Positions 809 through 32,961 of a stretch of 64,000 nucleotides of DNA are shown here, piece by piece. A model generated the notes under the pieces. That model ran no database searches, was not told the DNA's origin, and worked only from the letters and a program-made list of their open reading frames with translations. The stretch comes from an uncultured Oscillospiraceae bacterium (GTDB lineage: Bacteria; Bacillota; Clostridia; Christensenellales; CAG-138): positions 274 through 64,273 of the forward strand of contig CAZBVC010000007.1 in NCBI GenBank assembly GCA_964495255.1, given 5' to 3'. Within the stretch, counting starts at the first letter, position 1. Each line of letters begins with the position of its first letter. The position numbers and the translations under genes are program-made.

Positions 809-3445
<2,637 letters not shown>

Positions 3446-16148: not shown

Positions 16149-16202
16149 TTGACAAATTTTGAAATAGTTGTTGACGAAATGATTAAGTATTGATAATATA
16201 AT
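16149..16202 (+). promoter_or_regulatory. AT-rich promoter region upstream of the beta-hydroxyacid dehydrogenase gene
   Basis: TTGACA (16149-16154) and TTGACG (16171-16176), followed by TAATAT/TATAAT (16194-16202). The exact -35/-10 pairing is ambiguous. Confidence 0.35.
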
Positions 16203-19278: not shown

Positions 19279-19356
19279 ACGCGAAAACCACGGTGATCAA
19301 TGTGTGCGAAATCAGGATCGCGCGCATTGCGCATAAAAAAAACGGAGGTAGAGTCA

Positions 19357-20460
19357 ATGAAAAAGTTCCTGTGTGTCCTTCTGACGCTGGCCATGGTACT
19401 GAGCCTTGTAGCATGCGCCAAGACCGAACCCGCCGCAACACCTGCGGCAGAGACTGCGACCGAAGAGCCGAAGGCGGAAGAACCCAAGGCGGAGGAGCCG
19501 AAGGCGGAAGAATCCGTTGCCGTCGAAGCAAAGGTCATGAAGATCGCCGGCACGATGTCTCAGGCGGAGACCGACGGCGAGTATAACGGAACGAAGAAGT
19601 TCGCAGAACTCGTCGAACAATACACCAACGGCTCCATCAAGGTCGAGATCTACCCGTCCAGCCAGCTCGGCGGTCAGACCGAGTTCTCCGAGGGCGTGCA
19701 GATGGGCTCCATCGAAGCCTGCGTGCTCGGTCCTTCCTATTTCGGCACGAGCGATCCGTTCATGTACTTCCTCGAAATGCCGTATCTGTTCAAAGACTTG
19801 CAGCATGCGCGCAACCTTTGGGAGACCGACAACGAAGCCAAGAAGCAGGTTGACGAGCATCTTGCCGCGCTGAACCTCATCTCCGTCGGCACGCTGTATC
19901 GCAGCCCCCGCGTATGGTGCAACAACAAGAACGCCGTCAAGTCAACCGCCGATAACGCGGGCATCAAGATGCGCACGCCCGAGAGCCCGATCAGCACCGC
20001 GCTGGTTACCGCCATGGGCGCCAACCCCGTTACCGTCGCTTGGGCGGAGGTTTACACCGCGCTGCAAAACGGCATGGTGGACGGCGTTGAGAACACCATC
20101 ACCGAGCTGTACAACAACAACATGCACGAAGTCGTCAAGTATTGCTCCGAGACGAACCACATGCTGAACGCGCAGGGCATCCTCGTTTCCAAGACCTGGT
20201 TCGAGGGCTTGACCGCGGACGAGCAGGACGCCATCAAGAAGGCGGGTCTCGAAGCGACCATTTGGCGCGCTGAGCAGCTCCAATCCGAAGTTGAGAAGTG
20301 CTGGCAGGGCTTTGTGGACAAGGGCGTTGAGATCACCTATCAGGCAGACCTCGACATGGACAGCTTCACCACCGCCGCCCAGTCCGTCCTTGACAAGTAC
20401 ATTGCGGAAGGCAACTTCACGCAGGAGTTCATCGACCTCGTCAAGGGTCTGGCTTCCTAA
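19357..20460 (+). CDS. dctP: TRAP transporter substrate-binding lipoprotein (DctP family)
   Basis: MKKFLCVLLTLAMVLSLVAC lipobox signal 7 nt after GGAGG. DctP-like body (YPSSQLGG, RSPRVW). Confidence 0.9.
   Translation: MKKFLCVLLTLAMVLSLVACAKTEPAATPAAETATEEPKAEEPKAEEPKAEESVAVEAKVMKIAGTMSQAETDGEYNGTKKFAELVEQYTNGSIKVEIYPSSQLGGQTEFSEGVQMGSIEACVLGPSYFGTSDPFMYFLEMPYLFKDLQHARNLWETDNEAKKQVDEHLAALNLISVGTLYRSPRVWCNNKNAVKSTADNAGIKMRTPESPISTALVTAMGANPVTVAWAEVYTALQNGMVDGVENTITELYNNNMHEVVKYCSETNHMLNAQGILVSKTWFEGLTADEQDAIKKAGLEATIWRAEQLQSEVEKCWQGFVDKGVEITYQADLDMDSFTTAAQSVLDKYIAEGNFTQEFIDLVKGLAS
19462..19506 (+). repeat. In-frame 3 x 15-bp repeat encoding (EEPKA)3 in the DctP lipoprotein linker
   Basis: GAAGAGCCGAAGGCG / GAAGAACCCAAGGCG / GAGGAGCCGAAGGCG, read directly. 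Confidence 0.9.
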
Positions 20461-20481
20461 GCGAACGAATCGTTACGTCTC

Positions 20482-20511
20482 ATCGGAGGTCGGTTTGCGC
20501 CGGCCTCCGAT
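20482..20511 (+). other. Intra-operon stem-loop downstream of dctP, no U-tract
   Basis: ATCGGAGGTCGG-TTTGCG-CCGGCCTCCGAT forms a 12-bp stem with one G-U pair. It is followed by ATCCAAAG. Confidence 0.6.
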
Positions 20512-20574
20512 ATCCAAAGAAAGCGCGAGCTCCAAAGAAACCCGGAATAAGGATGTATCGGAGGATGAACCATT

Positions 20575-21111
20575 ATGTTTGAACAGAAATTCAATCGCTT
20601 TTGCGATAAGGTGGTAACGGTGATCAAGGGCTTCACGGGCATCCTCTTACTTGCCATGCTGCTCGTCGTCGTGTTTCAGGTGTTTTGGCGCGGTCTGTTG
20701 AAGCTGCCGACGCCTTGGACGGAGGAAGCCTCCACCTATCTTGTAACTTATATTACGTTTATCGGCGGCATCGCCGTTATGATTCGCGGCGAACACCTTA
20801 CCATCGATCTGGTAACCGAGCATGTATCCGAAAAGATGCGCGCGTGGTTTCAGGTCATCTATTGCGCTGTGTTCCTGTTTGTATGCGGCTATCTGGCGTT
20901 TTACGGCGCGCAGCTTTGCCTGAGTCCCTTGATCTACAAATCCCGTTCCATCGCCATGCAGATTCCCAAGGTCATCGTCTATGCGGTGATGCCGTTCAGC
21001 ATGGGTCTGAGCGTGATCTACAACGTATTCCATCTTTATTTCCTCATCAAACATATCGTAACCGACGGCAAGAAGACGGATCAAGTCGCTGCGGAGAATG
21101 CGGCGGCGTAA
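20575..21111 (+). CDS. dctQ: TRAP transporter small permease (DctQ family)
   Basis: 178 aa, four hydrophobic segments. RBS GGAGGA. Sits between dctP and dctM. Confidence 0.85.
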   Translation: MFEQKFNRFCDKVVTVIKGFTGILLLAMLLVVVFQVFWRGLLKLPTPWTEEASTYLVTYITFIGGIAVMIRGEHLTIDLVTEHVSEKMRAWFQVIYCAVFLFVCGYLAFYGAQLCLSPLIYKSRSIAMQIPKVIVYAVMPFSMGLSVIYNVFHLYFLIKHIVTDGKKTDQVAAENAAA

Positions 21112-21198
21112 AACGCCTTCTGATGGTATGAAAAGCCGCGGCGCCTTCCGTAAATCGCGCCGTTGCAAAACTTAAATATTTTAAGAATGAGGATCATT

Positions 21199-22476
21199 AT
21201 GAGCGCAATCGTATGGAGCGGAATGGTTCTGTTGCTCGTCATCGGTTTGCCCATCGGCTTTGCCCTGACGGCGCTTTCCATCATCCTGCTTGCCACCAGC
21301 GGAACGTCTACGCCTTTTGCCATCGCACAAAAATCCGTTACCAGCTTGCAGTCGTTCACCATGCTCGCGATTCCCTTCTTCATGCTCGCCGGCAACGCTA
21401 TGTCGGAAACAAACGTATCAAAAAAGATCTTTAACTTCGCCGGCAGTCTCGTTCGTCATCTGCCGGGCGGCATGGCGCATGTCAACATCCTTTGCAGCAT
21501 GCTCCTTGCCGGAACGTCAGGCTCCGCCGTTGCGGACGTTACGGGCGTGGGCAAATTGGAGATTGACGCCATGGAGGACGCGGGCATGGATCGCGACTTT
21601 GCCGCGGCGACCACGGCGGCGTCCGCCTGCATCGCGCCCATCATCCCGCCTAGCATGAGCATGGTCATATACGCCTCCATTTCGGGCGTTTCCATCGGCA
21701 AGATGCTTTTCGGCGGGCTCGTACCCGGCGTCCTGCTGGGCGTGGCGATGATGATCTACGCTTATTTTTACAGCAAACGCAAAAACTTCCCGATCCAGCC
21801 GCGCGTTACGTTCGGTGAGTTCGGGAAAACGTTTGTGGACGCAATCCCCGCGCTGATGCTGCCCGTCATCATATTGGGCGGCATACTGGGCGGCATCTTT
21901 ACCGCGACGGAAGCGGCGGCGGTCGGCTCGTTTTACGCGATTTTGCTGGGACTGTTGTTCTATCGCAACCTCAGCTTGAAGAAGCTGTTCGTCATCCTCG
22001 GCAACACGGCATTCCTCTGCGCAACGACGATGTGTATCATGTATGGCTCGTCCGTGTTCGGTCTCGTGCTCACGCAGAATCAGATTCCGCAGAAGCTCTG
22101 TGCGTTCTTCGTGAATCTTTCCGAACAGCGCTGGATCATCGTGATTTGTGTGAACATCATGCTGCTCATTCTCGGCTGCCTGATGGACTGCACGCCGATT
22201 CTCATCATTTTGAGCGGCACGCTCGCCCTGCTTGCCCAACAGCTCGGCATGGATCCCGTCCAGTTCGGCGTCATGGTCGTTTTGAACGTGACCATCGGGC
22301 TTATCACGCCGCCGGTCGGCATGATCCTGTTCGTGACCCAAAAGGTGGCGGGCATCAGCACAAAGCGAATGTTTACCGTCGTTTGGCCCTATGTGGGCAT
22401 GATGCTCATCGTGCTCATGCTCGTAGCCTTCATTCCGCAAATCAGCGTTTGGGTGCCGAACCTGCTGATCAGATAG
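21199..22476 (+). CDS. dctM: TRAP transporter large permease (DctM family), copy 1
   Basis: 425 aa from MSAIVWSG. Typical DctM sequence (AIPFFMLAGNAM, GTSGSAVADV). Confidence 0.9.
   Translation: MSAIVWSGMVLLLVIGLPIGFALTALSIILLATSGTSTPFAIAQKSVTSLQSFTMLAIPFFMLAGNAMSETNVSKKIFNFAGSLVRHLPGGMAHVNILCSMLLAGTSGSAVADVTGVGKLEIDAMEDAGMDRDFAAATTAASACIAPIIPPSMSMVIYASISGVSIGKMLFGGLVPGVLLGVAMMIYAYFYSKRKNFPIQPRVTFGEFGKTFVDAIPALMLPVIILGGILGGIFTATEAAAVGSFYAILLGLLFYRNLSLKKLFVILGNTAFLCATTMCIMYGSSVFGLVLTQNQIPQKLCAFFVNLSEQRWIIVICVNIMLLILGCLMDCTPILIILSGTLALLAQQLGMDPVQFGVMVVLNVTIGLITPPVGMILFVTQKVAGISTKRMFTVVWPYVGMMLIVLMLVAFIPQISVWVPNLLIR
21346..22415. repeat. Identical core of the dctM tandem duplication (copy 1)
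   Basis: 1,070 nt in which I found no mismatch against 22661-23730 (offset 1,315 nt). All ORF-track translations in sense and antisense frames are identical. Confidence 0.85.
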
Positions 22477-22513
22477 CGGAGAAAGCGAAAATTCGGAAAG
22501 GAACTTTTCTCAA

Positions 22514-23791
22514 ATGAGCAGTATCGTATGGATAGCCATGATTCTGCTGCTGGTGATCGGGTTGCCCATCGGCTTTGCCCTGACGGCTCTTTCTATTGTC
22601 CTGCTTGCCACCAGCGGAACGTCTACGCCTTTTTCCATTGCGCAAAAATCAGTTACCAGTTTGCAGTCGTTCACCATGCTCGCGATTCCCTTCTTCATGC
22701 TCGCCGGCAACGCTATGTCGGAAACAAACGTATCAAAAAAGATCTTTAACTTCGCCGGCAGTCTCGTTCGTCATCTGCCGGGCGGCATGGCGCATGTCAA
22801 CATCCTTTGCAGCATGCTCCTTGCCGGAACGTCAGGCTCCGCCGTTGCGGACGTTACGGGCGTGGGCAAATTGGAGATTGACGCCATGGAGGACGCGGGC
22901 ATGGATCGCGACTTTGCCGCGGCGACCACGGCGGCGTCCGCCTGCATCGCGCCCATCATCCCGCCTAGCATGAGCATGGTCATATACGCCTCCATTTCGG
23001 GCGTTTCCATCGGCAAGATGCTTTTCGGCGGGCTCGTACCCGGCGTCCTGCTGGGCGTGGCGATGATGATCTACGCTTATTTTTACAGCAAACGCAAAAA
23101 CTTCCCGATCCAGCCGCGCGTTACGTTCGGTGAGTTCGGGAAAACGTTTGTGGACGCAATCCCCGCGCTGATGCTGCCCGTCATCATATTGGGCGGCATA
23201 CTGGGCGGCATCTTTACCGCGACGGAAGCGGCGGCGGTCGGCTCGTTTTACGCGATTTTGCTGGGACTGTTGTTCTATCGCAACCTCAGCTTGAAGAAGC
23301 TGTTCGTCATCCTCGGCAACACGGCATTCCTCTGCGCAACGACGATGTGTATCATGTATGGCTCGTCCGTGTTCGGTCTCGTGCTCACGCAGAATCAGAT
23401 TCCGCAGAAGCTCTGTGCGTTCTTCGTGAATCTTTCCGAACAGCGCTGGATCATCGTGATTTGTGTGAACATCATGCTGCTCATTCTCGGCTGCCTGATG
23501 GACTGCACGCCGATTCTCATCATTTTGAGCGGCACGCTCGCCCTGCTTGCCCAACAGCTCGGCATGGATCCCGTCCAGTTCGGCGTCATGGTCGTTTTGA
23601 ACGTGACCATCGGGCTTATCACGCCGCCGGTCGGCATGATCCTGTTCGTGACCCAAAAGGTGGCGGGCATCAGCACAAAGCGAATGTTTACCGTCGTTTG
23701 GCCCTATGTGGGCATGATGCTCATCGTGCTGCTGCTGACCTCGTTTATCCCGCAAATCAGCACATGGATCCCGAACCTGCTGATCCATTGA
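22514..23791 (+). CDS. dctM: TRAP transporter large permease (DctM family), copy 2
   Basis: 425 aa. Differs from copy 1 only in about the first 50 and last 20 residues. Confidence 0.9.
   Translation: MSSIVWIAMILLLVIGLPIGFALTALSIVLLATSGTSTPFSIAQKSVTSLQSFTMLAIPFFMLAGNAMSETNVSKKIFNFAGSLVRHLPGGMAHVNILCSMLLAGTSGSAVADVTGVGKLEIDAMEDAGMDRDFAAATTAASACIAPIIPPSMSMVIYASISGVSIGKMLFGGLVPGVLLGVAMMIYAYFYSKRKNFPIQPRVTFGEFGKTFVDAIPALMLPVIILGGILGGIFTATEAAAVGSFYAILLGLLFYRNLSLKKLFVILGNTAFLCATTMCIMYGSSVFGLVLTQNQIPQKLCAFFVNLSEQRWIIVICVNIMLLILGCLMDCTPILIILSGTLALLAQQLGMDPVQFGVMVVLNVTIGLITPPVGMILFVTQKVAGISTKRMFTVVWPYVGMMLIVLLLTSFIPQISTWIPNLLIH
22661..23730. repeat. Identical core of the dctM tandem duplication (copy 2)
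   Basis: Partner of 21346-22415. Confidence 0.85.
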
Positions 23792-23821: not shown

Positions 23822-24586
23822 ATGGAACGCTTCAAAGATCAAGTGGTCGTGGTGACGGGCGCGTCAAGCGGCATCGGCAAGGATATTGCGCAGCGCTTTT
23901 ATGAGGAAGGCGCGATTATGGCGCTTTGCAGCCGCAGCGCGGCGCGCGTGGAAAAGGCGGTATCCGAATATGCCGAGCTGCCGAGCAGCCGCGTAATGGT
24001 CATGTCTGCGGATATGCGCCTTGTGGCGGACGTCCGTGCGTTTGTGGACGCGGTAATCGCGCGCTTCGGGCGGATCGACGTGCTGGTCAACGACGCGGGG
24101 CTGAGCTTTCCCAAGCCGAGCCTCGAAGTGACCGAGGAGGATTGGGACACCACCGTGGACACCAATATGAAGGGCTATTTCTTTATGGCGCAGGCGGTGG
24201 CAAAGGCGATGATCGAGCGCGGCATTCGCGGCAGCATCGTCAACATCGGCTCGGTCAACTCGGTTACGGTGGTCGTGGGGCAAGCGTGCTACGCGGCGAC
24301 CAAGGCGGGTATTTCGCAGATGACGCGCAGCCTTGGGCGGGAATGGGGGCGCATGGGCATTCGCGTGAATTGCGTCGCGCCGGGCAGTATCCCCGCGGAA
24401 TGCAACCGCGTGATGTATTCCGACCCCGCCGTGTTGAAGGCGATGTGCGACAAGCTGCCCATGGGGCGGCGCGGCGTTCCGCACGAGATCTCCGATGCGG
24501 TTATGTATCTTTCCAGCGAGCAAGCGTCCTATATCACGGGGCAAACGCTGTTTGTGGACGGCGGATTGACGCTTGTGCAGGGCTGA
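23822..24586 (+). CDS. SDR-family oxidoreductase (FabG-like)
   Basis: VVVVTGASSGIGKDIA, NDAG, YAATKAG catalytic YxxxK. 254 aa. Confidence 0.9.
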   Translation: MERFKDQVVVVTGASSGIGKDIAQRFYEEGAIMALCSRSAARVEKAVSEYAELPSSRVMVMSADMRLVADVRAFVDAVIARFGRIDVLVNDAGLSFPKPSLEVTEEDWDTTVDTNMKGYFFMAQAVAKAMIERGIRGSIVNIGSVNSVTVVVGQACYAATKAGISQMTRSLGREWGRMGIRVNCVAPGSIPAECNRVMYSDPAVLKAMCDKLPMGRRGVPHEISDAVMYLSSEQASYITGQTLFVDGGLTLVQG

Positions 24587-24604: not shown

Positions 24605-25246
24605 ATGGACATTCTTTGCTACGGCGATTCCAACACTTGGGGCGCGATCCCCGGCGGCGGCAGATTTGCGCGCCTGCCGCGGGAAAAGCGCTGGACGGGT
24701 AGGCTTGAGACGGCGTTCGGCGGCAAATACCGTGTGATTGAAGAGGGCTGCAACGGCAGAACGACCGTGTTGGACGACCATGCGGCGGACGGGCGAAACG
24801 GCTTGAAAACGTCTGTGGTCATATTGGAAAGTCATCGTCCGCTGGGGCTTATCATCGTGATGCTTGGCACGAACGACCTGAAACGCCGCTATTGCATGTC
24901 CCCGACGGACGTCGCGGCGGGGTTAAAGCGGCTCGTCAAGGCGATGCAGGCGTATCCATGCGGAAACACGGAGAAGGCGCGCGTGCCGATGCTTTTGATC
25001 GCGCCCGCGCCGATCCTGCATGGGGTGTCGCAGTTTTGGGAGGGCATGTACGCCGAGGAATCCGTCGGCGATTCCGAACAGCTCGGCGCGCTGTATGCAG
25101 ACGTAGCCAAAGAATGCGGATGTGCGTTTTTAGACGCGGGAAGCGTGGTGCGCGCGAGCAAAAGCGACGCGCTGCATCTCGACGAAGCCGCGCATGAAAG
25201 GCTCGCCTTGGCGATCGAAAACAAGATACGGGAAATGGGAATCTGA
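24605..25246 (+). CDS. SGNH/GDSL-family hydrolase (esterase)
   Basis: ILCYGDSNTWG block I, GTND block III, DALHLD block V. Confidence 0.85.
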   Translation: MDILCYGDSNTWGAIPGGGRFARLPREKRWTGRLETAFGGKYRVIEEGCNGRTTVLDDHAADGRNGLKTSVVILESHRPLGLIIVMLGTNDLKRRYCMSPTDVAAGLKRLVKAMQAYPCGNTEKARVPMLLIAPAPILHGVSQFWEGMYAEESVGDSEQLGALYADVAKECGCAFLDAGSVVRASKSDALHLDEAAHERLALAIENKIREMGI

Positions 25247-25298: not shown

Positions 25299-25970
25299 AT
25301 GGAAAAGATCAGAGTTGGCGTTGTGCATACGTTCCTGTATTCGGTGGAGGACTTGAAGGCGATGTTTCGCAAGTATCTGCCGGACGTTGAGATGATCAAC
25401 ATCATCGACGACAGCCTGCTTGAAGAGGCGCTCAAAAACAAGGGTGTGACGCCGGGCATCATCAGCCGTATGTGCGACTATTACACCAATATGCAGGAGC
25501 TGGGCTGCGCCTGCGTACTGAACCAGTGTTCCTCGGTCGGCGAGGTTGCGGATATTGCATCGAAGCTCGTCTCCATTCCCGTCGTCAAGATCGACGGCCC
25601 AATGGCGAAGAAGGCGGCCGAGCTTGGAAGCCGCGTCGCGGTTATCGCAACGGCGATTTCCACGGTGGAACCGTCCAGCCGTTTGGTCGAGCATTATGCG
25701 CGCCTTGCGGGCAAGGACGTCAAGGTGGATCGCTGCTATGTGGACGGCGCTTACGAATGTCTGCTCAAAACGGGCGATAAGCAAAAGCACAACGATATGG
25801 TCTGCGCAAAGGTGCGCGAGGCGGCGAAGGATCACGACGTGATCGTGCTTGCGCAGGGCAGTATGTATCATTTGATGCCGCTGCTTGCGGACGTCAAAAC
25901 GCCGGTTCTGACCAGCCTCGAAACGGGCGTGGCGCAGATTCGCGACGTGCTCGGGCTGGATGCGAAATAA
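25299..25970 (+). CDS. Asp/Glu/hydantoin racemase-family protein
   Basis: 223 aa from MEKIRVGV (RBS GGAGGA). Two-lobed racemase-like layout, with NQCSSVGE around residue 77 and VIVLAQGSMY around residue 185. Confidence 0.65.
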   Translation: MEKIRVGVVHTFLYSVEDLKAMFRKYLPDVEMINIIDDSLLEEALKNKGVTPGIISRMCDYYTNMQELGCACVLNQCSSVGEVADIASKLVSIPVVKIDGPMAKKAAELGSRVAVIATAISTVEPSSRLVEHYARLAGKDVKVDRCYVDGAYECLLKTGDKQKHNDMVCAKVREAAKDHDVIVLAQGSMYHLMPLLADVKTPVLTSLETGVAQIRDVLGLDAK

Positions 25971-26018: not shown

Positions 26019-27053
26019 ATGACAAAAATTAAAGTCGGTGTAGCGGGATATGGCACGATCGGTCAGCGGCTCGCGGATGGCGTGGCGTTGCAGGGCGATA
26101 TGGAACTCGTGGGCGTGGCGGATTTGGCGCCGACGCTGCCGATTCGTGCGCTGTATGAAAAGGGTATGCCCTATGACCTGTATCTGGTCGCGGGCGCGGA
26201 CAAATCCAAGTTCGACGCGCTTGGCATCCCCGTAAGGGGAACGTTTGACGACCTTTTGGGGCAGGTTGACGTCATGCTGGACAGCAGCCCGGGCGGCGTG
26301 GGCGCGCGCAACAAGGAGCTTTACGAGAAGGCGGGCGTCAAGGCGATTTTTCAGGGCGGCGAGGACAACAGCGTCGCGGACGTGTTCTTCCATGGCTATG
26401 CGAACTATGATAAGGGACTCGGGCAGAACTATTTGAAGCTGACGAGCTGCAACACGACGGGACTCATCCGCACCGTGGACGCGCTGGATCGCGCATACGG
26501 CATGGAACGCGTCGCGATTACGATCATCCGCCGCGTGGCGGATCCGGGCGACTATAATCGCGGTCTGACCAACGCGCTGAGAATCGACAAGGCGCCCTCG
26601 CATCAAGCGGTCGATCTCATGACCATCATGCCGCATGTCGCCGCGACGGGTATTTTGGTGCATACGCCCGTTACGCACGGGCATATCATTACGGTTGTCG
26701 CAACGGGCAAGCAGAAGATCACGCGCGAGATGGCGTTGAAGGCGTTCGAGGCGCATCCGCGCATCCGCGTCGTGCGCATCGACGACGGCTTCCTCGGCAA
26801 CGCGAGCCTGTTCAAATACGCGCGCGACCTCGGTCATACGCGCGGCGACATGTACGAGATCGCCGTTTGGGAGGATTCCATCGTGGAGAGCGGAAACGAC
26901 ATCATGTACGCCATCAACATTCCGCAGGAGAGCGTGACGATTCCCGAAACGATAGACGGTATTCGCGCGGCGATGCGGATGCAGCCCGATCGCGAAAGCG
27001 GCACGGCGGAAACGAACAAATACCTGAACATCGGCAGCTTCAAGCGGAAATAA
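26019..27053 (+). CDS. gap: Glyceraldehyde-3-phosphate dehydrogenase, type II (archaeal type) homologue
   Basis: Collinear with archaeal GAPDHs: GYGTIGQRLAD, IFQGGE, TSCNTTGLIRT (catalytic Cys), IRRVADP, APSHQAVD, DMYEIAVWEDSI, PQESVTIPETIDGIRA. It does not show the bacterial SCTTN class I pattern. Confidence 0.8.
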   Translation: MTKIKVGVAGYGTIGQRLADGVALQGDMELVGVADLAPTLPIRALYEKGMPYDLYLVAGADKSKFDALGIPVRGTFDDLLGQVDVMLDSSPGGVGARNKELYEKAGVKAIFQGGEDNSVADVFFHGYANYDKGLGQNYLKLTSCNTTGLIRTVDALDRAYGMERVAITIIRRVADPGDYNRGLTNALRIDKAPSHQAVDLMTIMPHVAATGILVHTPVTHGHIITVVATGKQKITREMALKAFEAHPRIRVVRIDDGFLGNASLFKYARDLGHTRGDMYEIAVWEDSIVESGNDIMYAINIPQESVTIPETIDGIRAAMRMQPDRESGTAETNKYLNIGSFKRK

Positions 27054-27102
27054 GCGCGGATCAGACTGCCGAAGGCATATGGCGAACCAAAACCGGTAAG
27101 TT

Positions 27103-27132
27103 GGCGGGTGGCGAAGAACCGCCCGCCTTTTT
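27103..27132 (+). terminator. Rho-independent terminator between the GAPDH-like and PGK-like genes
   Basis: GGCGGGTGG-CGAAGAA-CCGCCCGCC (9 bp, one G-U pair) followed by TTTTT at 27128-27132. The pgk RBS GAGAGGA begins 2 nt later. Confidence 0.7.
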
Positions 27133-27146
27133 GAGAGGATAAAGCT

Positions 27147-28394
27147 ATGCGATTCGGAATTCATACGCTGGACGAATTCGACGTTGCGGGCAAGCGCGTG
27201 CTTTGCCGCGTGGACATCAACCAACCCGTGGACAAGGAAAAAGGGACGCTCAAAAGCATTGCGCGCATCAAAGCGTGCGTAAAGACGCTGAGGGAGTTGA
27301 GCGACAAGGGCGCGAAGCTCGTTTTGCTCGCGCATCAGGGCTCGGATATCGAGTATAAAAATTTTTACACGACCGCGCCGCACGCAAAGGTGCTGACCGA
27401 GCTGCTCGGGCGCGAGGTTCGTTTTATCGACGATGTGACGGGGCCCGCCGCAAGGGAAGCGATTTGCTCGCTGAAAGACGGCGAGATCCTGCTTTTGGAT
27501 AACGTGCGTTTTTGCTCGGAGGAGCAGACGCTTTTTGAGACCAAGCTGAACCTGACGCATGAGCAACAGGCGAAAACGCAGGTCGTGACCAAGCTTTCGC
27601 CGCTGTTTGATTTGTATGTTTGCGACGCGTTTGCCGCCGCGCATCGCGACCAACCGTCGCTTTGCGGCTTTGAACAGGTGCTGCCGAGCGCGATGGGCAG
27701 GCTGTTTGAAACGGAATACTGCGTAATCTCCGAGCTGATGGCGGCTCCCGCGCGCCCCTGCACGTTTGTATTGGGCGGCGCGAAGGTTGCGGATGCGTTC
27801 CTTATGATGGAAACCGTGCTGAAAAGCGGCGCGGCGGATCGCGTGCTGACGGGCGGCTTGGTTGGAAACATCCTGCTTGCGGCGAAGGGCGAGGAGATCG
27901 GAAAGGGAAGTATGGACTTTATCGTCTCCTCGGGGTATGATGAATACATTGCGAAATCACGCGCCGTGCTGAACGCGTATCAAGACCGCATCGTTCTGCC
28001 GAGCGATCTTTCGGGCGTTGCGGAGGGGAAGCGCGTGACCTTTGCCGTCGGCAGCGTCCCAGCGGATTTTTCCGCGCTCGACGTGGGCGAGGAAACGGCA
28101 AAAGGCTATGCCGCGCATATCCGATCGAGCAAGACCGTGTTCGTCAACGGGCCCATGGGCGTGTTCGAGCAGGCGGAGACCGAGCTCGGTACAAAGACCG
28201 TTTGGGAAGCGCTCGGCGAAACGGAGGCGTATACGGTGATCGGCGGGGGAGACAGCATTACGGCGACGACCAAGTACGGCTTAACGGACAAGATCGGCTA
28301 TATCTGCACGGGCGGAGGCGCGCTGATCCGCTTTTTGACGGGCGAAGAGCTGCCCGTAGTCAAGGCGCTGCGGCATGCGGCGCAGACGTTCTGA
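27147..28394 (+). CDS. pgk: Phosphoglycerate kinase homologue, archaeal-like
   Basis: RVDINQPV, LLAHQGSD...HAKVL and LLLDNVRFCSEE resemble archaeal PGKs rather than bacterial SHLGRP / ENVRFxxGEE. YVCDAFAAAHRDQPS and TGGGAL are also present. Confidence 0.8.
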   Translation: MRFGIHTLDEFDVAGKRVLCRVDINQPVDKEKGTLKSIARIKACVKTLRELSDKGAKLVLLAHQGSDIEYKNFYTTAPHAKVLTELLGREVRFIDDVTGPAAREAICSLKDGEILLLDNVRFCSEEQTLFETKLNLTHEQQAKTQVVTKLSPLFDLYVCDAFAAAHRDQPSLCGFEQVLPSAMGRLFETEYCVISELMAAPARPCTFVLGGAKVADAFLMMETVLKSGAADRVLTGGLVGNILLAAKGEEIGKGSMDFIVSSGYDEYIAKSRAVLNAYQDRIVLPSDLSGVAEGKRVTFAVGSVPADFSALDVGEETAKGYAAHIRSSKTVFVNGPMGVFEQAETELGTKTVWEALGETEAYTVIGGGDSITATTKYGLTDKIGYICTGGGALIRFLTGEELPVVKALRHAAQTF

Positions 28395-28416: not shown

Positions 28417-29667
28417 ATGCGCTTTGAGCTGGGATTTAACACGGGCGTTCAGACGCTGAACGTGCCCGATGAAAACCTGATCGGCGTGCTTACGCCCAAT
28501 TCGGTCAAGCACGAATTGACGAACGAGGCGGAGGTATGCCGCGCGCTGGAAAACCCGATCGGTTCGCCGCGCCTTCGGGAAATCGTGCGCACAGGCGAAA
28601 AAATCGCCATCGTTACGAGCGATATCACGCGCCCGATGCCGACCTATCGCGTGATGCCCGCGCTGTTGGACGAGCTGTATGCCGCGGGCGTAAAGCGCGA
28701 GGATATTACGCTTGTGTTCGCGCTGGGCAGCCACAGGAAGCACACGCCGCAGGAGCAGAAAAAGCTCGCGGGCGAACGCGCGTTTGCCGAGATAACCTGC
28801 GTGGACGGGGATACGTCAAACTGTGTGTCATACGGAAAAACGTCGCGCGGAACGCCTGTTGACATTTGCCGCGTCGTGGCGGAGGCGGATGTTCGCATCT
28901 GCCTAGGCAACATTGAGTATCACTATTTCGCTGGCTATTCGGGCGGGGCGAAGGCGATTATGCCCGGCGTGAGCACGCGCGACGCGATTCAATCAAATCA
29001 CAGCCGCATGGTGGAGGACGCCGCGTGCGCGGGCAGGCTTTGCGGCAACCCCGTGCGCGAGGATATCGAGGAAGCGGCGGATATGGTCGGCGTGGACTTT
29101 ATCGTCAACGTCGTTTTGGACGAGCATAAGCAGATCATTCGCGCCGTGGCGGGCGACGTAACAAAGGCGCATCGCGCGGGCTGCGCGTTTCTGGACGCGC
29201 TGTATCAAACGCCGATTTCAAAAAGGGCGGATATCGTCGTGGTTTCGCAGGGGGGCGCGCCGAAGGATCTGAACCTGTATCAAACGCAAAAGGCGCTGGA
29301 CAACGCCAAACATGCCGTGAGGGACGGCGGAACGATCATTCTCGTAGGCTCGTGCAGGGAGGGCTTGGGCGAGCGCGTGTTTGAGGAATGGATGACGACC
29401 GCGCCGACGGCAAGCAGCCTGATCGAGCGCATCAAACGGGAGTTTCGTCTCGGCGGTCACAAGGCGGCGGCGATCGCCATGGTGCTGCAAAAAGCCCGCA
29501 TTTTTCTCGTTTCCGAGCTGGAGCCAGCGTTTGTCAAAAGCATTTTCTTGGAGCCGTATGCCGACGTTCAAAGCGCGTTTGACGCGGCGCTTTCCGCATA
29601 CGGAGCAAACGCAAGCGTTCTCGTCATGCCGTATGGCGGATCGACGCTTCCGCGCATGATAGATTGA
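28417..29667 (+). CDS. larA: Nickel-pincer-dependent 2-hydroxyacid racemase/epimerase, LarA family
   Basis: 416 aa from MRFELGFN (RBS GAGGGAG). LarA signature positions: VTSDITRPMP, ALGSHRKHT, EYHYFAGYSGGAKAIMPG (tethering Lys), QSNHS. Confidence 0.85.
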   Translation: MRFELGFNTGVQTLNVPDENLIGVLTPNSVKHELTNEAEVCRALENPIGSPRLREIVRTGEKIAIVTSDITRPMPTYRVMPALLDELYAAGVKREDITLVFALGSHRKHTPQEQKKLAGERAFAEITCVDGDTSNCVSYGKTSRGTPVDICRVVAEADVRICLGNIEYHYFAGYSGGAKAIMPGVSTRDAIQSNHSRMVEDAACAGRLCGNPVREDIEEAADMVGVDFIVNVVLDEHKQIIRAVAGDVTKAHRAGCAFLDALYQTPISKRADIVVVSQGGAPKDLNLYQTQKALDNAKHAVRDGGTIILVGSCREGLGERVFEEWMTTAPTASSLIERIKREFRLGGHKAAAIAMVLQKARIFLVSELEPAFVKSIFLEPYADVQSAFDAALSAYGANASVLVMPYGGSTLPRMID

Positions 29668-29708
29668 TTGAACACAGAACTATATTTGACGAAGGAGAGT
29701 ATCAACTG

Positions 29709-30884
29709 ATGGATTACGCAAAGGAATCCCTGCGCCTGCATGGGGAATGGAAGGGAAAAATCGAGGTGGTGGCGACGGTGCCCGTGGCGACGAAGGACGA
29801 TTTGTCGCTTGCATATACGCCGGGCGTGGCGCAGCCGTGTCTCGAAATTCAAAAGGATATCGACAAGAGCTATGAGCTGACGCGGCGCTGGAACCTGTGC
29901 GCGGTCGTAACGGACGGCACGGCGGTATTGGGACTTGGCGACATCGGGCCCGAAGCCGGTATGCCCGTGATGGAGGGGAAATGCGTTCTGTTCAAGGCGT
30001 TCGGGGACGTTGACGCGTTTCCGCTCTGCGTGAAAAGCAAGGACGTGGACGAGATCGTGAAAACGATCTATCTCATCAGCGGGAGCTTCGGCGGCGTCAA
30101 CCTCGAGGATATTGCGGCGCCGCGGTGCTTCGAGATCGAGCGGAAGCTGAAAGCGTGCTGCGACATACCGATCTTCCATGACGATCAGCACGGCACGGCG
30201 ATTATCACGCTGGCGGGCTTGACGAACGCCTTGAAGGTGGTCGGCAAAAAGAAAGAGGACGTAAAAATCGTAACAAGCGGCGCGGGCGCGGCGGCGATCT
30301 CGATCGTGAAGCTGCTGCTCTCGGCGGGCTATCAAAACGTAACGATGTGCGACCGCACGGGGATTATTTACAGCGGACGCGAGAAGGGCATGAACTGGAT
30401 CAAGACCGAGATGGCGGAGCTGACGAACAAAGAGGGCAAGCGCGGCACGCTGGCGGACGCGATGGTCGGCGCGGACGTGTTCATCGGCGTATCGGCGCCC
30501 GGCACGGTGACTTCCGAGATGGTCAAGACGATGGCGAAGGACGCGATCATATTTGCATGCGCGAACCCGACGCCCGAGATCTTCCCCGAGGAAGCGAAAA
30601 AGGGCGGCGCGGCGGTGATCGCGACGGGCAGAAGCGACTTCCCGAACCAGGTAAACAACGTGCTGGCGTTCCCGGGCGTGTTCCGCGGAACGTTCGACGT
30701 TCGCGCAAGCGACATCAACGAGGAGATGAAGATGGCGGCGGCGACGGCGCTGGCGGAGCTGATCTCTTACGAGGAGCTGACGGCGGACTATATCATACCG
30801 AAAGCGTTCGACCCGCGCGTTGGCAAGGCGGTCGCCAAGGCGGTTGCGGAAGCCGCGCGCAGAAGCGGCGTCGCGCGCATCTGA
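29709..30884 (+). CDS. NAD(P)-dependent malic enzyme (short form)
   Basis: [20 protein letters not shown]..., [45 protein letters not shown]. Confidence 0.9.
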
Positions 30885-30906: not shown

Positions 30907-31776
30907 ATGCAGATGTTTGAACCCGCCGATATTACGCTTCGATGCGGCGAATGGGAAGCGCACGTTGCGAGCCGATTCGGCATGAACGCGCTTTCTCTCA
31001 TGCATAACGGAAAGCCGATTTTGCGCACGCCCGAAAGCGAGGACGTCTTTCTTGCCGCGCCCGAGCAATACGGCACGCCGCCGCTCATGCCCGCGCTGCG
31101 AACGGCCTTTGCGCGCTTCACGTTCGAGGGCAAAACGTATACGCTTGTCGAGAACGACCCAACGCACCATGCGCATAAGCACGGGCTTTTGCACAGATCT
31201 CCGTTTCGCGTGATCGAGCAAACGGCACAAAAAGCAATCGGCGTATTGGAGAACACGGGCGAAATTTTCCCGTTTCCGTTCGTTTGCACCATTTCCGCGG
31301 AGCTGACGCATGCGGGCTTACGCCAGAGCTTTGCGTTTTTGAATACGGGCGGCGGAAATATGCCGCTCGTGTTCGCACTGCATACGGCGTTCGCGCTTCC
31401 CCAAACCATGCGCGTTCCGATCGGGCAGAAATGGGCGATGGATGAAAACATCGTGCCGACGGGCGAGCTGCTGCCGTTAACAGACGAAGAAAAGGCGCTT
31501 TTCGCCGGCTGCGACGCGCCCTCCTGCATGGCGGACGGTGCGTTTACCGCGCTGGGAAGCACGGCGGAGCTGGGGGACTATGCGTATCGGGTTTCGCCGA
31601 ATTTTACGCAATGGGTGCTATGGAACGGCGGAGGCGGAAAGGGCTTTACCTGCGTCGAACCCATGAGCGGGCCCGCGAACGCGCTGAACCGCGCGGATTG
31701 CCTGACGTTGACCGCGGGCGAGAGCATACGCTTCGACACCGAGATCGGCAAGGTTTCAGCAGACGTTCGCCGATAA
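30907..31776 (+). CDS. Aldose 1-epimerase (galactose mutarotase-like) family protein
   Basis: About 289 aa, beta-sandwich mutarotase-like sequence (HKHGLLH..., CVEPMSGP). The start may instead be the ATG at 30913. Confidence 0.65.
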   Translation: MQMFEPADITLRCGEWEAHVASRFGMNALSLMHNGKPILRTPESEDVFLAAPEQYGTPPLMPALRTAFARFTFEGKTYTLVENDPTHHAHKHGLLHRSPFRVIEQTAQKAIGVLENTGEIFPFPFVCTISAELTHAGLRQSFAFLNTGGGNMPLVFALHTAFALPQTMRVPIGQKWAMDENIVPTGELLPLTDEEKALFAGCDAPSCMADGAFTALGSTAELGDYAYRVSPNFTQWVLWNGGGGKGFTCVEPMSGPANALNRADCLTLTAGESIRFDTEIGKVSADVRR

Positions 31777-31794: not shown

Positions 31795-32961
31795 ATGGAC
31801 GAAATTTTTCGGCAAATTGCGCCGCGCCTTCGGGAGATCGAGGAAACGCTGCATCAAAACCCCGAGCTGAGCTTTCGGGAATATGAAACGACGCGGCTCA
31901 TTCGAAGCGTGATCGAGCCGCTGGGGCTGGAAATCATCGACTTAGGCACGGAAACGGGCGTGGTCGCGCGCCTGCATGGCGGACACGGCGGCAAAACGAT
32001 CGGCTTGCGCGCGGATATTGACGCGCTGAAACAGCAAGAGGCGCGCGAACGCCCCGATCGCTCGCGAAACGACGGCGTGATGCACGCCTGCGGACACGAC
32101 ATTCATACGACGGGGCTTCTCGGCGCGGCAATGGCGCTTTCCGCAAAGCGCGAATCGCTTCATGGCGACGTCGTTTTCGTGTTTCAGCCCGCAGAGGAGA
32201 TCATTAAGGGCGCAAAAAAGCTGATCGAATGCGGCTTGTTCGAAAAAGCGCCGATGGACATGCTGTTCGGGCTGCACAATACGCCTACCTTGAACGTCGG
32301 AACGATCGGGGTTAAGCATGGCCCGCTCATGGCGGCAAAGGACGATTTTACGATTACGGTCTGCGGCAAAGGCGGTCACGGGGGCATTCCCGATCGCTGC
32401 ATCGACCCCGTGGTTGCGGCATGCGGCGTTGTGAACGCGCTGCAAACCGTCGTAAGCCGCAACGTCAGTCCCTTGGATGTGGCGGTGCTGTCGATTTGCT
32501 CGATCCACGGCGGAACGACGGACAACCTCATCGTGGACGAGGTGACGCTGACGGGAAGCCTGCGTACGATGCTGCCCGAGGTGCAGAAAAGGGCGTTTGA
32601 GCGCGTTTGCGAAATTGCGGACGCGGGCGCGCAGACCTACGGCTGCAAAGCAAAGATGAATCATTATGCCGAAACGCCGCCGTTGATCAACGGGGACGAG
32701 ATGGCGCGCCTTGCCGAGATTGCGGCGAAGGCGACCGTCGGGGAGGCGAATGTCGTCGACCCCACCGCATGCATGGCAAGCGATGATTTTGCCGAATACG
32801 GTATATTTGTGCCGTCGTTTTTCTACTTTGCGGGCAGCGGCGTCGAGGGCGAAGAAAACCCGTCCTGGCACAGCGCGCATTTTCGCGGCGCAAAAACCGC
32901 TTCCCTTTACGGCGCAAAGTTGCTGACAAACAGTGTACTTGCGGCGCAGGGGCTGTTATAA
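31795..32961 (+). CDS. M20-family amidohydrolase (N-acyl-amino-acid/hippurate hydrolase-like)
   Basis: LHQNPELSFREYET, RADIDAL, MHACGHD, FQPAEE motifs. Confidence 0.85.
   Translation: MDEIFRQIAPRLREIEETLHQNPELSFREYETTRLIRSVIEPLGLEIIDLGTETGVVARLHGGHGGKTIGLRADIDALKQQEARERPDRSRNDGVMHACGHDIHTTGLLGAAMALSAKRESLHGDVVFVFQPAEEIIKGAKKLIECGLFEKAPMDMLFGLHNTPTLNVGTIGVKHGPLMAAKDDFTITVCGKGGHGGIPDRCIDPVVAACGVVNALQTVVSRNVSPLDVAVLSICSIHGGTTDNLIVDEVTLTGSLRTMLPEVQKRAFERVCEIADAGAQTYGCKAKMNHYAETPPLINGDEMARLAEIAAKATVGEANVVDPTACMASDDFAEYGIFVPSFFYFAGSGVEGEENPSWHSAHFRGAKTASLYGAKLLTNSVLAAQGLL

Follow-up and report, generated by a model that had tools for sequence, protein, structure and literature searches.

The window, that is, the whole 64-kb stretch of DNA analysed here, carries a long array of forward-strand genes within which a type II (archaeal-type) glyceraldehyde-3-phosphate dehydrogenase (GAPDH) homologue of 344 residues (GAP2, 26019-27053) is followed by an archaeal-like phosphoglycerate kinase (PGK) homologue of 415 residues (27147-28394). 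The array opens with a HIBADH-family, GarR- and YihU-like dehydrogenase (16317-17201), upstream of which lie a promoter-like site (16171-16199) and, on the reverse strand and divergent from the cluster, a DeoR-family regulator (15133-15948; Pfam DeoRC and HTH_DeoR). It continues with a divergent PdxA-family β-hydroxyacid dehydrogenase (17242-18258; Pfam PdxA, 215 bits), a metallo-β-lactamase-fold (MBL) hydrolase (18284-19171; Pfam Lactamase_B), a TRAP transporter (19300-23791; Pfam DctP, DctQ and DctM) made up of DctP (19300-20460), DctQ (20575-21111) and two DctM genes (21163-22476 and 22514-23791), a short-chain dehydrogenase (SDR, 23822-24586; Pfam adh_short_C2), a GDSL-family esterase (24605-25246; Pfam Lipase_GDSL_2) and, directly 5' of GAP2, an Asp/Glu/hydantoin-racemase-family protein (25299-25970; Pfam Asp_Glu_race, 51.6 bits), which has no match in the PDB or NCBIfam. 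Downstream of the pair lie a nickel-pincer-dependent malate racemase of the LarAH6/Mar2 type (28417-29667) and a malic enzyme of the short NAD(P) type (29664-30884; Pfam malic and Malic_M), which shares 4 nt with the end of the racemase gene, and the same-strand array then goes on with an aldose-1-epimerase-family gene (30907-31776) and an M20 peptidase/amidohydrolase (31795-32961), both assigned with Pfam. No tpi, gpm or eno was found within the 64 kb, nor were a transketolase, iol genes or the larB, larC and larE genes of nickel-pincer cofactor synthesis. With a TRAP transporter, an MBL hydrolase, a racemase-family protein and an SDR around it, the pair indeed sits in an accessory catabolic and not a glycolytic cluster, as an earlier note on this DNA had proposed.

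The same note had named the two proteins an archaeal-type GAPDH and PGK, and this assignment holds. Both open reading frames and all motifs quoted are present, in GAP2 (GYGTIGQR, IFQGGE, SCNTTGL, RRVADP, PSHQ, EIAVWEDSI and QESVTIPE) as well as in its neighbour (LAHQGSD, DNVRFCSEE and AAAHRDQPS, besides GGGD and TGGGA). GAP2 scores above both NCBIfam equivalog models for type II GAPDH (NF003251, 404.2 bits with a cut-off of 185; TIGR01546, 304.5 bits with a cut-off of 232.9), and its PDB matches at E≤1e-5 are exclusively archaeal GAPDHs (2czc, 1cf2, 2yyy and 1b7g; 222-264 bits), with none to a class I enzyme. The PGK-like protein has the full-length, two-domain PGK architecture (Pfam PF00162, 376 bits over residues 8-400 of 415) and best matches the Pyrococcus (P. 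horikoshii) PGK 2cun at 294 bits, bacterial PGKs reaching at most 228 bits. Family-match E-values of 1e-112 to 1e-121 rule out chance as an explanation for the identity of the pair. The 93-nt spacer between the two genes contains a GC-rich hairpin and, after it, a T-run on the forward strand (27103-27127; 9-bp stem, 8 GC pairs), which is the best-scoring terminator-like site between 15.6 and 35.5 kb and possibly acts as a partial terminator or mRNA-stabilising element; in total, terminator-like sites are no more numerous than expected from shuffled sequence.

In composition the pair resembles its flanking genes (GC 0.58-0.60; GC3 0.78 and 0.74), so the comparison that the earlier note had suggested as a check on horizontal acquisition gives no sign of recent import. 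The mobility itself is apparent from the distribution of the family. We collected 80 bacterial loci with a GAPDH-II at least 79% identical to GAP2, from Clostridia, Treponema, Chloroflexi and Planctomycetes; a more distant member comes from Thermotogae. Members from Clostridia, Spirochaetes, Chloroflexi and Planctomycetes are 79-86% identical, and single genomes may carry two copies (L027/L033 and L030/L045), both of which mark the pair as accessory and horizontally mobile.

The surroundings of GAP2 in these loci are conserved. Among the 44 full loci, defined by at least 6 kb on both sides of GAP2, 40 contain the PGK-like gene, 32 the malate racemase, 30 a split transketolase, 22 two or more of the inositol genes iolG, iolE, iolD and iolB, and 18 a malic enzyme or a subunit of oxaloacetate decarboxylase (OAD); PGK is missing from four, and in five GAP2 and PGK occur without any of these partners. 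The usual order is IolE, IolB, IolD, IolG, GAP2, PGK, malate racemase, in some cases malic enzyme, and the two transketolase subunits TKn and TKc (L007, L015, L011, L028 and L062), and the succession GAP2-PGK-LarA-TKn-TKc is found even in a 42%-identical member, from a cluster including Kosmotoga. IolG, IolE and IolD of the related loci exceed their NCBIfam equivalog cut-offs; the IolB-like protein falls far below its own (85 bits versus 205). A DeoR gene adjoins the module in 25 of the 80 loci by a stricter count and in 32 by a looser, tblastn-based one. In 55 non-redundant unlabelled ORFs from 24 iol-type loci, we found neither IolC, IolJ nor IolA (PfkB, FBP-aldolase and ALDH) among the families listed (25 of 59), and no sugar kinase able to supply a phospho-aldose.

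The informative neighbours in the window are the LarA-type gene and the malic enzyme directly downstream of the pair, which the earlier note overlooked. The former exceeds the NCBIfam malate racemase model NF052593 (591 bits, cut-off 500) and its closest PDB structure is Mar2 (6d6z, 415 bits), other LarA proteins scoring 229 bits or less. Copies of the malic enzyme, about 79% identical, are found in 28 of the 80 loci, and OAD_beta takes its place in three more (L006, L011 and L012). A Mar2-type racemase followed by either malic enzyme or OAD-beta indicates malate as the product pool, even if racemase and malic enzyme could, in principle, form an independent unit for D/L-malate utilisation.

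At the residue level, the two proteins keep the catalytic residues and most substrate ligands and show clade-wide changes near them. GAP2 retains the catalytic Cys140 together with His219, Asp171 and the Arg167/168 pair (M. fervidus numbering), and SCNTTGL and [IV]RRxxDP are each found in all 80 sequences of its clade. Of the 108 archaeal-invariant columns, 73 are kept in the clade, and the flanks of the catalytic Cys and His are remodelled: fixed changes at archaeal-invariant sites comprise His194→Gln, R136K/V137L/V138T, P214H/T216P/L217V/M218T and H299P, so that at none of these near-active-site positions is the archaeal residue found. A further substitution, Lys33→Asp, is present in all 80 members, the four archaeal structures all having Lys, and members 62-67% identical likewise show it (motif GVAD). 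In the M. fervidus enzyme, Lys33 reportedly contacts the 2'-phosphate of NADP, and its replacement predicts a use of NAD in GAP2 and not the archaeal preference for NADP. In the PGK-like protein, six of the seven ligands of the 3-phosphoglycerate (3-PG) site are kept (Asp23, Asn25, Arg38, His62, Arg122 and Arg170, human numbering), and the exception is the 3-phosphate-binding Arg65, which is Ser in the window protein (motif HQGSD..Y) and Ser in 57, Asp in nine and Gly in one of the 68 homologues from the related loci, one of which lacks the HQG motif. Ser, Asp or Gly is likewise found in the roughly 11 nearest representatives of the PGK-like protein, and Arg or Lys in nearly all of about 100 archaeal- and bacterial-type PGK representatives; among 1.84 billion representatives, the nearest Arg-bearing relatives are archaeal (Helarchaeota, Methanomassiliicoccaceae and an uncultured archaeon). 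Compared with 96 archaeal-type PGK representatives, the clade is set apart solely by changes in the His62-Arg65 phosphate-binding loop (R→S/D/G, G→I, D→N and L→T) and by S387C. A substitution at this site is structurally tolerated in yeast PGK, whose R65Q variant was stable enough for crystallisation (1qpg, with HLGQP). With most of the basic patch of the PGK-like protein (Arg38, Arg122, Arg170 and His62) and the Arg-Arg pair of GAP2 retained, a phosphate-bearing substrate may still be accepted, and the loss of Arg65 would suit a longer phospho-substrate as well.

These changes bear on a rival explanation, namely that the pair are plain xenologous glycolytic enzymes that take D-glyceraldehyde 3-phosphate (D-G3P) to 3-PG and whose co-expression with catabolic operons serves only to add lower-glycolysis capacity, for example for pentose-phosphate G3P after transketolase. 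That both proteins pass the family-level GAPDH-II and PGK models, keep the catalytic residues and most substrate ligands, and are linked to a transketolase, in whose chemistry G3P takes part, would all agree with it. We nevertheless regard it as improbable, since the phosphate-binding Arg65 is lost throughout the clade through changes confined to its loop, the surroundings of the GAP2 active site are remodelled, and the conserved gene set offers no other enzyme for the conversion of a C4 aldehyde to malate implied by racemase and malic enzyme. Moreover, transketolase would consume G3P as its acceptor, so an enzyme that drains G3P from within the same operon would be counter-productive. A bacterial precedent also exists in P. 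thermosuccinogenes, whose type II GAPDH, a protein that may lie outside the GAP2 clade, showed no G3P activity with NAD+ or NADP+ in crude extracts, and whose genome encodes two active type I GAPDHs (PMC6543838). A substrate other than G3P and 3-PG, as the earlier note had envisaged, is plausible.

The gene identities, their conserved linkage and the clade-specific residue changes lead us to propose, with a probability of about 0.55, that the pair is no glycolytic gap/pgk set but the core of a bacterial module, spread horizontally and built from neofunctionalised archaeal-type GAPDH and PGK paralogues, that would convert D-malate semialdehyde to D-malate with formation of ATP. D-malate semialdehyde (3-hydroxy-4-oxobutanoate, OHC-CHOH-CH2-COO-) may be viewed as D-G3P with a carboxylate for the phosphate ester. 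GAP2 is proposed to act as its NAD-dependent phosphorylating dehydrogenase, yielding D-malyl-1-phosphate from the aldehyde, NAD+ and phosphate, and the PGK-like protein to pass the phosphate on to ADP (a D-malate kinase in reverse), yielding D-malate and ATP; the Mar2-type racemase would then provide L-malate, and malic enzyme pyruvate and CO2. In most genomes, the aldehyde would derive from myo-inositol, which IolG, IolE, IolD and IolB would convert to 2-deoxy-5-keto-D-gluconate. This ketose has the D-threo configuration required by transketolase, and its cleavage to D-malate semialdehyde by the split transketolase would take the place of the IolC/IolJ/IolA branch, which consumes ATP. When the Fischer projections are followed through, the stereocentre left after cleavage should be that of the D (R) aldehyde, giving D-malate, which is why a racemase would be needed. 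Substrates, direction and ATP yield are here predicted from gene context and active-site changes. Two of the steps have precedents: the passage from D-malic semialdehyde via D-malate to pyruvate is proven in A. baumannii, where it uses a non-phosphorylating aldehyde dehydrogenase (PMC11353897), and in grape, transketolase has been suggested to split 5-keto-D-gluconate so as to yield a C4 aldehyde-acid (PMC7970118).

The window itself would combine the core of GAP2, PGK, racemase and malic enzyme with a different feeder route, for which the TRAP transporter, importing the substrate, and the HIBADH-like, PdxA-like, MBL and SDR proteins are candidates. Related arrangements occur in three window-type loci. 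An SDR 5' of a racemase-family gene and GAPDH-II is common to all of them (L037, L044 and L074), the HIBADH-family gene and MBL hydrolase recur in L037 and L044, the TRAP transporter in L037 and L074, and an M20 gene in L044; the Asp/Glu-racemase-family protein has about 75%-identical copies in the same position in four loci, and the GDSL-family esterase is specific to the window (1 of 80). The HIBADH-family enzyme, with 361 bits to TIGR01505 (cut-off 340.75) and 395.9 to NF008592, just below the cut-off of 397, seems the likeliest source of the aldehyde, which it would produce from a primary alcohol such as 3,4-dihydroxybutyrate.

For the window, the earlier note had instead linked the pair, via a tetrose phosphate and 4-phosphoerythronate, to the PdxA-family gene. 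In such a model, erythrose 4-phosphate would give 4-phosphoerythronate and ATP, LarA would epimerise C2, and the PdxA-family enzyme would decarboxylate the product to DHAP. The loss of Arg65 could fit a phosphate one carbon further out, and LarA enzymes epimerise 2-hydroxy acids at C2 (PMC11770544). The related loci do not support the link: only 3 of 80 include the PdxA-like gene together with the pair, all of them window-type (L037, with two copies, L044 and L074), and the conserved partners are those described above, the Mar2-type racemase (32/44), the split transketolase (30/44), iol genes (22/44) and malic enzyme or OAD (18/44). The PdxA-like protein, whose best PDB match is 2hi1 (132 bits), falls below every NCBIfam PdxA/PdxA2 cut-off (e.g., 202.6 versus 290.35 and 144.4 versus 583), both model score and PDB similarity identify the LarA homologue as a Mar2 orthologue, malic enzyme or OAD follows it, no DUF1537 or other kinase was found in the window cluster, and the iol-type operons likewise showed no kinase among the families listed (25 of 59). 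We thus consider this model, or a close variant of it, very unlikely.

Two further readings keep a non-phosphorylated substrate. At least in the window, the same phosphorylating logic could serve another aldehyde-acid, the candidates being tartrate semialdehyde (from 5-keto-gluconate or tetronates), tartronate semialdehyde and 3-sulfolactaldehyde, with the racemase acting on tartrate or sulfolactate. TRAP systems often transport acids of the tartrate or sulfolactate type, and the HIBADH-family protein of the window scores as a tartronate-semialdehyde reductase and, more weakly, as a sulfolactaldehyde reductase and L-threonate dehydrogenase. Tartrate is among the substrates that Mar2-type enzymes epimerise (PMC11770544), and a transketolase route from 5-keto-gluconate to tartrate semialdehyde has already been proposed (PMC7970118). 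This is improbable, as a malic enzyme in the same array (with its 4-nt overlap) and in 28 loci indicates malate, the iol genes lead one to expect the 2-deoxy (malate) series, and no sulfo-lyase, sulfite exporter or tartrate dehydratase was found in the window cluster. The module might also run reductively, from D-malate through the semialdehyde to 3,4-dihydroxybutyrate via the PGK-like protein, GAP2 and the HIBADH-family enzyme, as an electron sink or in biosynthesis; both reactions are reversible in glycolysis/gluconeogenesis, and window-type clusters do carry a HIBADH reductase. As Lys33→Asp predicts NAD over NADPH, which is typical of the oxidative direction, the linkage to import systems, iolGEDB and transketolase is catabolic, and fermenters are unlikely to spend ATP, we judge this direction highly improbable.

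Returning to oxidation of D-malate semialdehyde, a literature search found no paper describing a module of GAP2, PGK, racemase and transketolase. At roughly even odds, we suggest that GAP2 and the PGK-like protein would be the first natural phosphorylating D-malate-semialdehyde dehydrogenase and D-malyl-phosphate:ADP phosphotransferase, and that they and a split transketolase that takes 2-deoxy-5-keto-D-gluconate would constitute an undescribed, ATP-yielding myo-inositol fermentation, in a module that would also serve other acids, such as the TRAP-imported one of the window. The module would have spread by horizontal transfer among gut and rumen Clostridia, termite-gut Treponema, Anaerolineae and Thermotogae. 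If true, the module would gain ATP from myo-inositol where the known route spends it, and it would supply the missing physiological role of the nickel-pincer malate racemases.

Archaeal class II GAPDHs (M. fervidus 1cf2, P. horikoshii 2czc and S. solfataricus 1b7g) and the PGK 2cun share folds and families with the module, as well as Cys140, His219, Asp171, Arg167/168, most PGK substrate and nucleotide ligands and, as predicted here, the logic of passing from an aldehyde through an acyl phosphate to an acid and ATP. The module differs in being bacterial and horizontally spread, in Lys33→Asp, His194→Gln, the remodelled Cys and His flanks and the lost Arg65, and in lying always within catabolic operons, amid genes for malate racemase, malic enzyme, transketolase and inositol use, where tpi/gpm/eno are never found. 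With the canonical, B. subtilis-type myo-inositol pathway it shares the upper half, about half of the related loci having IolG, IolE, IolD and IolB-like genes in co-linear order; the IolC kinase, IolJ aldolase and IolA dehydrogenase were not found among the families listed (25 of 59), and split transketolase, GAP2, the PGK-like protein, malate racemase and ME/OAD replace the lower half, with a C2 ketol unit, pyruvate and CO2 plus a net gain of ATP as the predicted products, in contrast to DHAP and acetyl-CoA. The L-carnitine pathway of A. baumannii has the same proposed intermediates, D-malic semialdehyde, D-malate, and pyruvate plus CO2, but employs a non-phosphorylating ALDH without ATP gain and a D-specific decarboxylating D-malate dehydrogenase (PMC11353897), where the module is predicted to use an energy-conserving phosphorylating GAPDH/PGK and a nickel-pincer racemase with an L-malic enzyme. 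Mar2/LarAH6 of Thermoanaerobacterium thermosaccharolyticum, a close homologue of the window gene at 28417-29667, is biochemically characterised and associated with malic enzyme in 15% of cases, its physiological role having been left open by its discoverers, whose paper says nothing of the association with GAPDH-II, PGK, transketolase and inositol genes seen here (PMC7583248). Finally, a synthetic malyl-phosphate pathway to 2,4-dihydroxybutyrate follows the same malate, malyl-phosphate and malate-semialdehyde chemistry, though reductively, at the C4 carboxylate of L-malate and on engineered aspartate-kinase and ASA-dehydrogenase scaffolds (as malate kinase and malate semialdehyde dehydrogenase) (PMC12104201), whereas the module would work oxidatively, at C1 of D-malate (the carboxyl beside the hydroxyl) and on GAPDH and PGK scaffolds.

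Both open reading frames described in the earlier note are present on the + strand, at 26019-27053 (344 aa) and 27147-28394 (415 aa), and all motifs quoted for them are found in their translations. The 344-aa protein is an archaeal-type (type II) GAPDH homologue, hereafter GAPDH-II, which scores 404 bits with NF003251 (cut-off 185) and 304.5 bits with TIGR01546 (cut-off 232.9) and whose PDB matches consist of four archaeal GAPDHs only. The 415-aa protein is a full-length PGK, and its description as archaeal-like is borne out by its best PDB relative, the Pyrococcus PGK, at 294 bits, with no bacterial enzyme scoring above 228 bits. The pair is indeed not grouped with tpi, gpm or eno, none of which was found within the 64 kb, and a comparison of composition that had been suggested finds its GC content and GC3 equal to those of the flanking genes.

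The PGK-like protein has counterparts of human Asp23, Asn25, Arg38, His62, Arg122 and Arg170, but a serine in place of Arg65, which together with two other arginines binds the 3-phosphate of 3-phosphoglycerate. The homologues from 68 related loci have Ser (57), Asp (9) or Gly (1) at this position, with one member devoid of the HQG motif; among 119 full-length PGK representatives, loss of the arginine is restricted to the ∼11 nearest, with ∼100 archaeal-type (HQ[GS]R[PK]G) and bacterial-type (HLGRP) sequences carrying Arg, a few Lys or Gln, and single ones other residues. The closest Arg-bearing relatives among the 1.84 billion representatives searched are archaeal (Helarchaeota, Methanomassiliicoccaceae and an uncultured archaeon). 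When the clade is compared with 96 archaeal-type PGK representatives, all discriminating sites fall within the Arg65 loop (R66S, G68I, D72N and L76T in the numbering of the window protein), the one exception being a Ser to Cys replacement. The change is thus aimed at how the distal end of the substrate is recognised and leaves the catalytic machinery intact.

A residue comparison of 80 GAPDH-II clade members with four archaeal structures shows that the clade keeps both catalytic residues (Cys140 and His219) as well as Asp171 and the pair Arg167/168, that His194 is replaced by Gln and His299 by Pro, and that the three residues preceding the catalytic Ser-Cys and the four preceding the catalytic His carry clade-fixed replacements; these signatures are still present in members with 62-67% identity. 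Lys33, which reportedly touches the 2'-phosphate of NADP in the GAPDH of M. fervidus, is Asp in 80 of 80 members, so that NAD use is predicted, as would fit an oxidative catabolic enzyme. Operation of the pair in the reverse direction is, in our estimate, highly improbable.

The pair is embedded in an array of + strand genes that spans 16317 to at least 32961; its members are closely spaced or overlap, and the gene of a DeoR regulator (15133-15948) diverges from it. The array opens with a HIBADH/GarR-like dehydrogenase (16317-17201), a PdxA-like protein (17242-18258) and an MBL hydrolase, continues with a TRAP transporter (DctP, DctQ and two DctM genes), an SDR, a GDSL esterase and an Asp/Glu-racemase-family protein (25299-25970), for which no match was found in PDB or NCBIfam, and leads through GAPDH-II and the PGK-like protein to a LarA homologue (28417-29667), a malic enzyme (29664-30884), an aldose-epimerase-like protein and an M20 hydrolase. 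The key neighbour, of which the earlier note made no use, is the LarA homologue: with the NCBIfam model of LarAH6-type malate racemases it scores 591 bits (cut-off 500), it matches the structure of the characterised Mar2 (6d6z) with 415 bits and any other LarA with at most 229 bits, and the malic enzyme gene starts in overlap with its stop codon. Racemisation of L-3-phosphoglycerate by this protein was considered and rejected, given its orthology to Mar2 and the malic enzyme or oxaloacetate decarboxylase (OAD) that comes after it. A reading of the two genes as plain glycolytic xenologues, which we regard as unlikely, is disfavoured by the targeted loss of Arg65, by the malate implied by the racemase and the malic enzyme, which no other enzyme of the conserved set could make, and by a published assay: in the clostridium P. 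thermosuccinogenes, whose genome also has two active type I GAPDHs, the type II enzyme gave no activity on glyceraldehyde-3-phosphate with either cofactor, and the authors describe class II GAPDHs in bacteria as being without functional evidence (PMC6543838).

A scan for promoters and terminators returned site totals not above those of shuffled sequence. GAPDH-II and the PGK-like gene are separated by 93 nt, within which lies a strong GC-rich hairpin (27103-27127, +; 9-bp stem, 8 GC pairs) followed by TTTTT, which could act as a partial terminator or stabiliser setting unequal expression of the two proteins. Within the TRAP system, two tandem full-length DctM genes (437 and 425 aa; 21163-23791, +) follow a single DctP and DctQ, an unusual arrangement, and identical 15-nt hairpin-like strings at 22088 and 23403 point to a recent tandem duplication.

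Proteins resembling GAPDH-II number in the thousands; identity is 81-99% for the top 120, and those with a named source are clostridial. When each species is represented by a single genome, relatives are encoded in at least 532 stretches, of which the top 80 (79-86% identical) belong to Lachnospiraceae, Oscillospiraceae, Christensenellaceae, Anaerovoracaceae, Peptococcaceae, Treponema and other Spirochaetes, Anaerolineae/Chloroflexi and one Planctomycete. Isolates with an orthologue include Dorea sp. D27, Lachnospiraceae bacterium FE2018, Treponema primitia ZAS-10 and Kosmotoga pacifica, and complete genomes that carry the module include NZ_CP144459.1, OY762278.1 and that of K. pacifica. Two copies each occur in two MAGs (loci L027 and L033, both on CAXXUL010000003.1, and loci L030 and L045, both UBA6114). 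Such high identity across phyla, together with duplicates within one genome, argues for a mobile accessory module and not for a housekeeping one. The duplicate copies occupy different contexts; in L027 and L045, a split transketolase directly follows GAPDH-II, without PGK or racemase, which may represent a further functional variant of the family.

To survey the context, the ORFs of the 80 loci were clustered and mapped, and neighbours were counted where both flanks extend for at least 6 kb, in 44 loci. A PGK-like gene adjoins GAPDH-II in 40 of these (with a median spacer of ∼62 nt, taken over all 69 of the 80 loci in which it occurs), and they also include a malate racemase (32/44), a split transketolase with N and C subunits (30/44), at least two of iolG/E/D/B (22/44), and malic enzyme or the β subunit of OAD (18/44). 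The usual operon order is IolE IolB IolD IolG GAP2 PGK MAR (ME) TKn TKc, where GAP2 is GAPDH-II, MAR the racemase, ME malic enzyme and TKn/TKc the transketolase subunits (loci L007, L015, L011, L028 and L062); IolG, IolE and IolD pass NCBIfam equivalog cut-offs, and the IolB-like protein is divergent. The IolC kinase, IolJ aldolase and IolA dehydrogenase were not found in the 24 iol-type loci, among the 25 families listed of 59. The order GAP2-PGK-LarA-TKn-TKc is retained in a member 42% identical at the PGK level, in a cluster that includes Kosmotoga. In loci without malic enzyme, the Na+-oxaloacetate decarboxylase β subunit directly follows the transketolase (L006, 16043-17173; L011; L012). 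These three loci belong to Clostridiaceae and Christensenellaceae, and in L011 and L012 a membrane H+-pyrophosphatase comes next, which hints that malate is possibly routed via oxaloacetate with ion-gradient conservation.

The accessory genes of the window are rare partners, with PdxA-like, MBL and TRAP genes in 3 of the 80 loci each, and they recur together in window-type loci (L037 from Rectinemataceae, L044 from Oscillospiraceae, and L074), where HIBADH, PdxA-like, MBL, TRAP, SDR and racemase-family genes lie upstream of GAP2-PGK-MAR. The iol-type and window-type contexts therefore indicate one conserved core served by at least two feeder routes. The earlier note had suggested that the pair may be a non-glycolytic module, acting for example on a tetrose phosphate and 4-phosphoerythronate/threonate and linked to the PdxA-family gene; what it observed is confirmed and its interpretation holds in part, but the erythrose-4-phosphate/PdxA model fits neither the pattern of conservation nor the identity of the LarA homologue and is very unlikely, although it is less strictly countered in the window-type subfamily.

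In a further locus (L082, 8001-10336), a distant PGK-like protein without Arg65 (motif HQGDPSI) adjoins a divergently transcribed gene for a GAPDH-II-like protein 62% identical to that of the window. Its surroundings contain two aldehyde:ferredoxin oxidoreductases, cupins, cyclases and a zinc-type alcohol dehydrogenase, with no racemase or transketolase found among them, and pairs of this type may serve other aldehyde-handling pathways.

In the window, no transketolase or iol gene was found near the pair, so that the aldehyde would have to arise by another route. The nearest thiamine-diphosphate enzyme (59270-61087) belongs to an unrelated cluster. Model scores place the HIBADH enzyme with tartronate-semialdehyde reductases and, less strongly, with sulfolactaldehyde reductases, both of which interconvert a primary alcohol and an α-hydroxy aldehyde; by analogy, we suggest that it could oxidise 3,4-dihydroxybutyrate to 3-hydroxy-4-oxobutanoate. 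Other aldehyde-acids (tartrate semialdehyde, tartronate semialdehyde or sulfolactaldehyde) are doubtful as substrates of the pair, if most conceivable in the window, and sulfolactaldehyde/sulfolactate is a minor rival only, because sulfur-handling genes are absent. Schemes for a window route through a glucarate-like aldolase and GarR, a tetronate, or 2,3-dihydroxyglutarate via the PdxA-like protein were considered, none of them constrained enough to claim.

Elsewhere in the window, an accessory cluster behind a LysR regulator (58170-63471, +) encodes an HMG-CoA-lyase-like enzyme, a shikimate-dehydrogenase-like protein and a 605-aa ThDP enzyme belonging to the acetolactate-synthase/IolD superfamily; with DctQ, another TRAP system begins there. 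With a further LarA-like gene (3622-4986, -), which is divergent and matches only Lar_N (43.8 bits), the genome has at least two nickel-pincer enzymes. This gene stands in a row (3622-8517, -) with those of an SDR (4928-5779), a 6-phosphogluconate dehydrogenase (5960-7405) and a PfkB kinase (7450-8517), which is the COG context (SDR, 6PGDH and sugar kinase) listed by Desguin et al. for the uncharacterised LarAH group 18, named putative hexonate epimerase by NCBI. The aconitase, isocitrate dehydrogenase and citrate lyase set (CitE-like, CitF, CitC ligase and CitG) at 47672-55829 (+) and the pyruvate phosphate dikinase at 692-3445 belong to ordinary central metabolism and citrate fermentation and have no relation to the pair.

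We propose, with a probability of roughly 55%, that a neofunctionalised GAPDH/PGK pair serves a malate-forming, ATP-yielding catabolic branch. IolG, IolE, IolD and IolB would convert myo-inositol to 2-deoxy-5-keto-D-gluconate (HOCH2-CO-CHOH-CHOH-CH2-COO-), which, viewed from its keto end, would be a 2-ketose with the D-threo (fructose-like) configuration needed by transketolase. Removal of the C2 ketol would leave 3-hydroxy-4-oxobutanoate (OHC-CHOH-CH2-COO-), with its hydroxyl configured as in D-glyceraldehyde-3-phosphate and equivalent to that substrate with a carboxylate in place of the phosphate ester; we infer this stereochemistry from Fischer projections. The GAPDH-type enzyme would then yield the acyl phosphate, and the PGK-type enzyme D-malate and ATP. 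To our knowledge, ordinary malic enzyme does not take D-malate as a substrate, which would explain the associated malate racemase and the malic enzyme or OAD downstream.

If this is true, two highly conserved glycolytic enzymes were recruited as a pair to the carboxylate analogue of their own substrate, a clean example of pathway duplication through substrate mimicry. Inositol and phytate are abundant in the gut, rumen and termite hindgut, whose anaerobes would possess an energy-conserving inositol branch. Metabolic engineers would gain natural malate-kinase and malate-semialdehyde-dehydrogenase activities, which we know so far only from engineered enzymes, and thousands of database entries annotated as glycolytic GAPDH or PGK would need correcting. 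The wide spread of malate racemases would also be accounted for, a question left open by the discoverers of Mar2, who left its physiological role open and found a link to malic enzyme in 15% only (PMC7583248).

Among known systems, the carnitine pathway of Acinetobacter has been proven to lead from D-malic semialdehyde through D-malate to pyruvate, with a non-phosphorylating aldehyde dehydrogenase (PMC11353897), and for tartrate synthesis in grape a transketolase cleavage of 5-keto-D-gluconate to C4 and C2 units has been proposed (PMC7970118). Full-text literature searches yielded no paper in which type II GAPDH, PGK, malate racemase, transketolase and inositol are brought together. The canonical inositol route spends one ATP at the IolC step; in contrast, the proposed branch would gain one, an advantage for fermenters.
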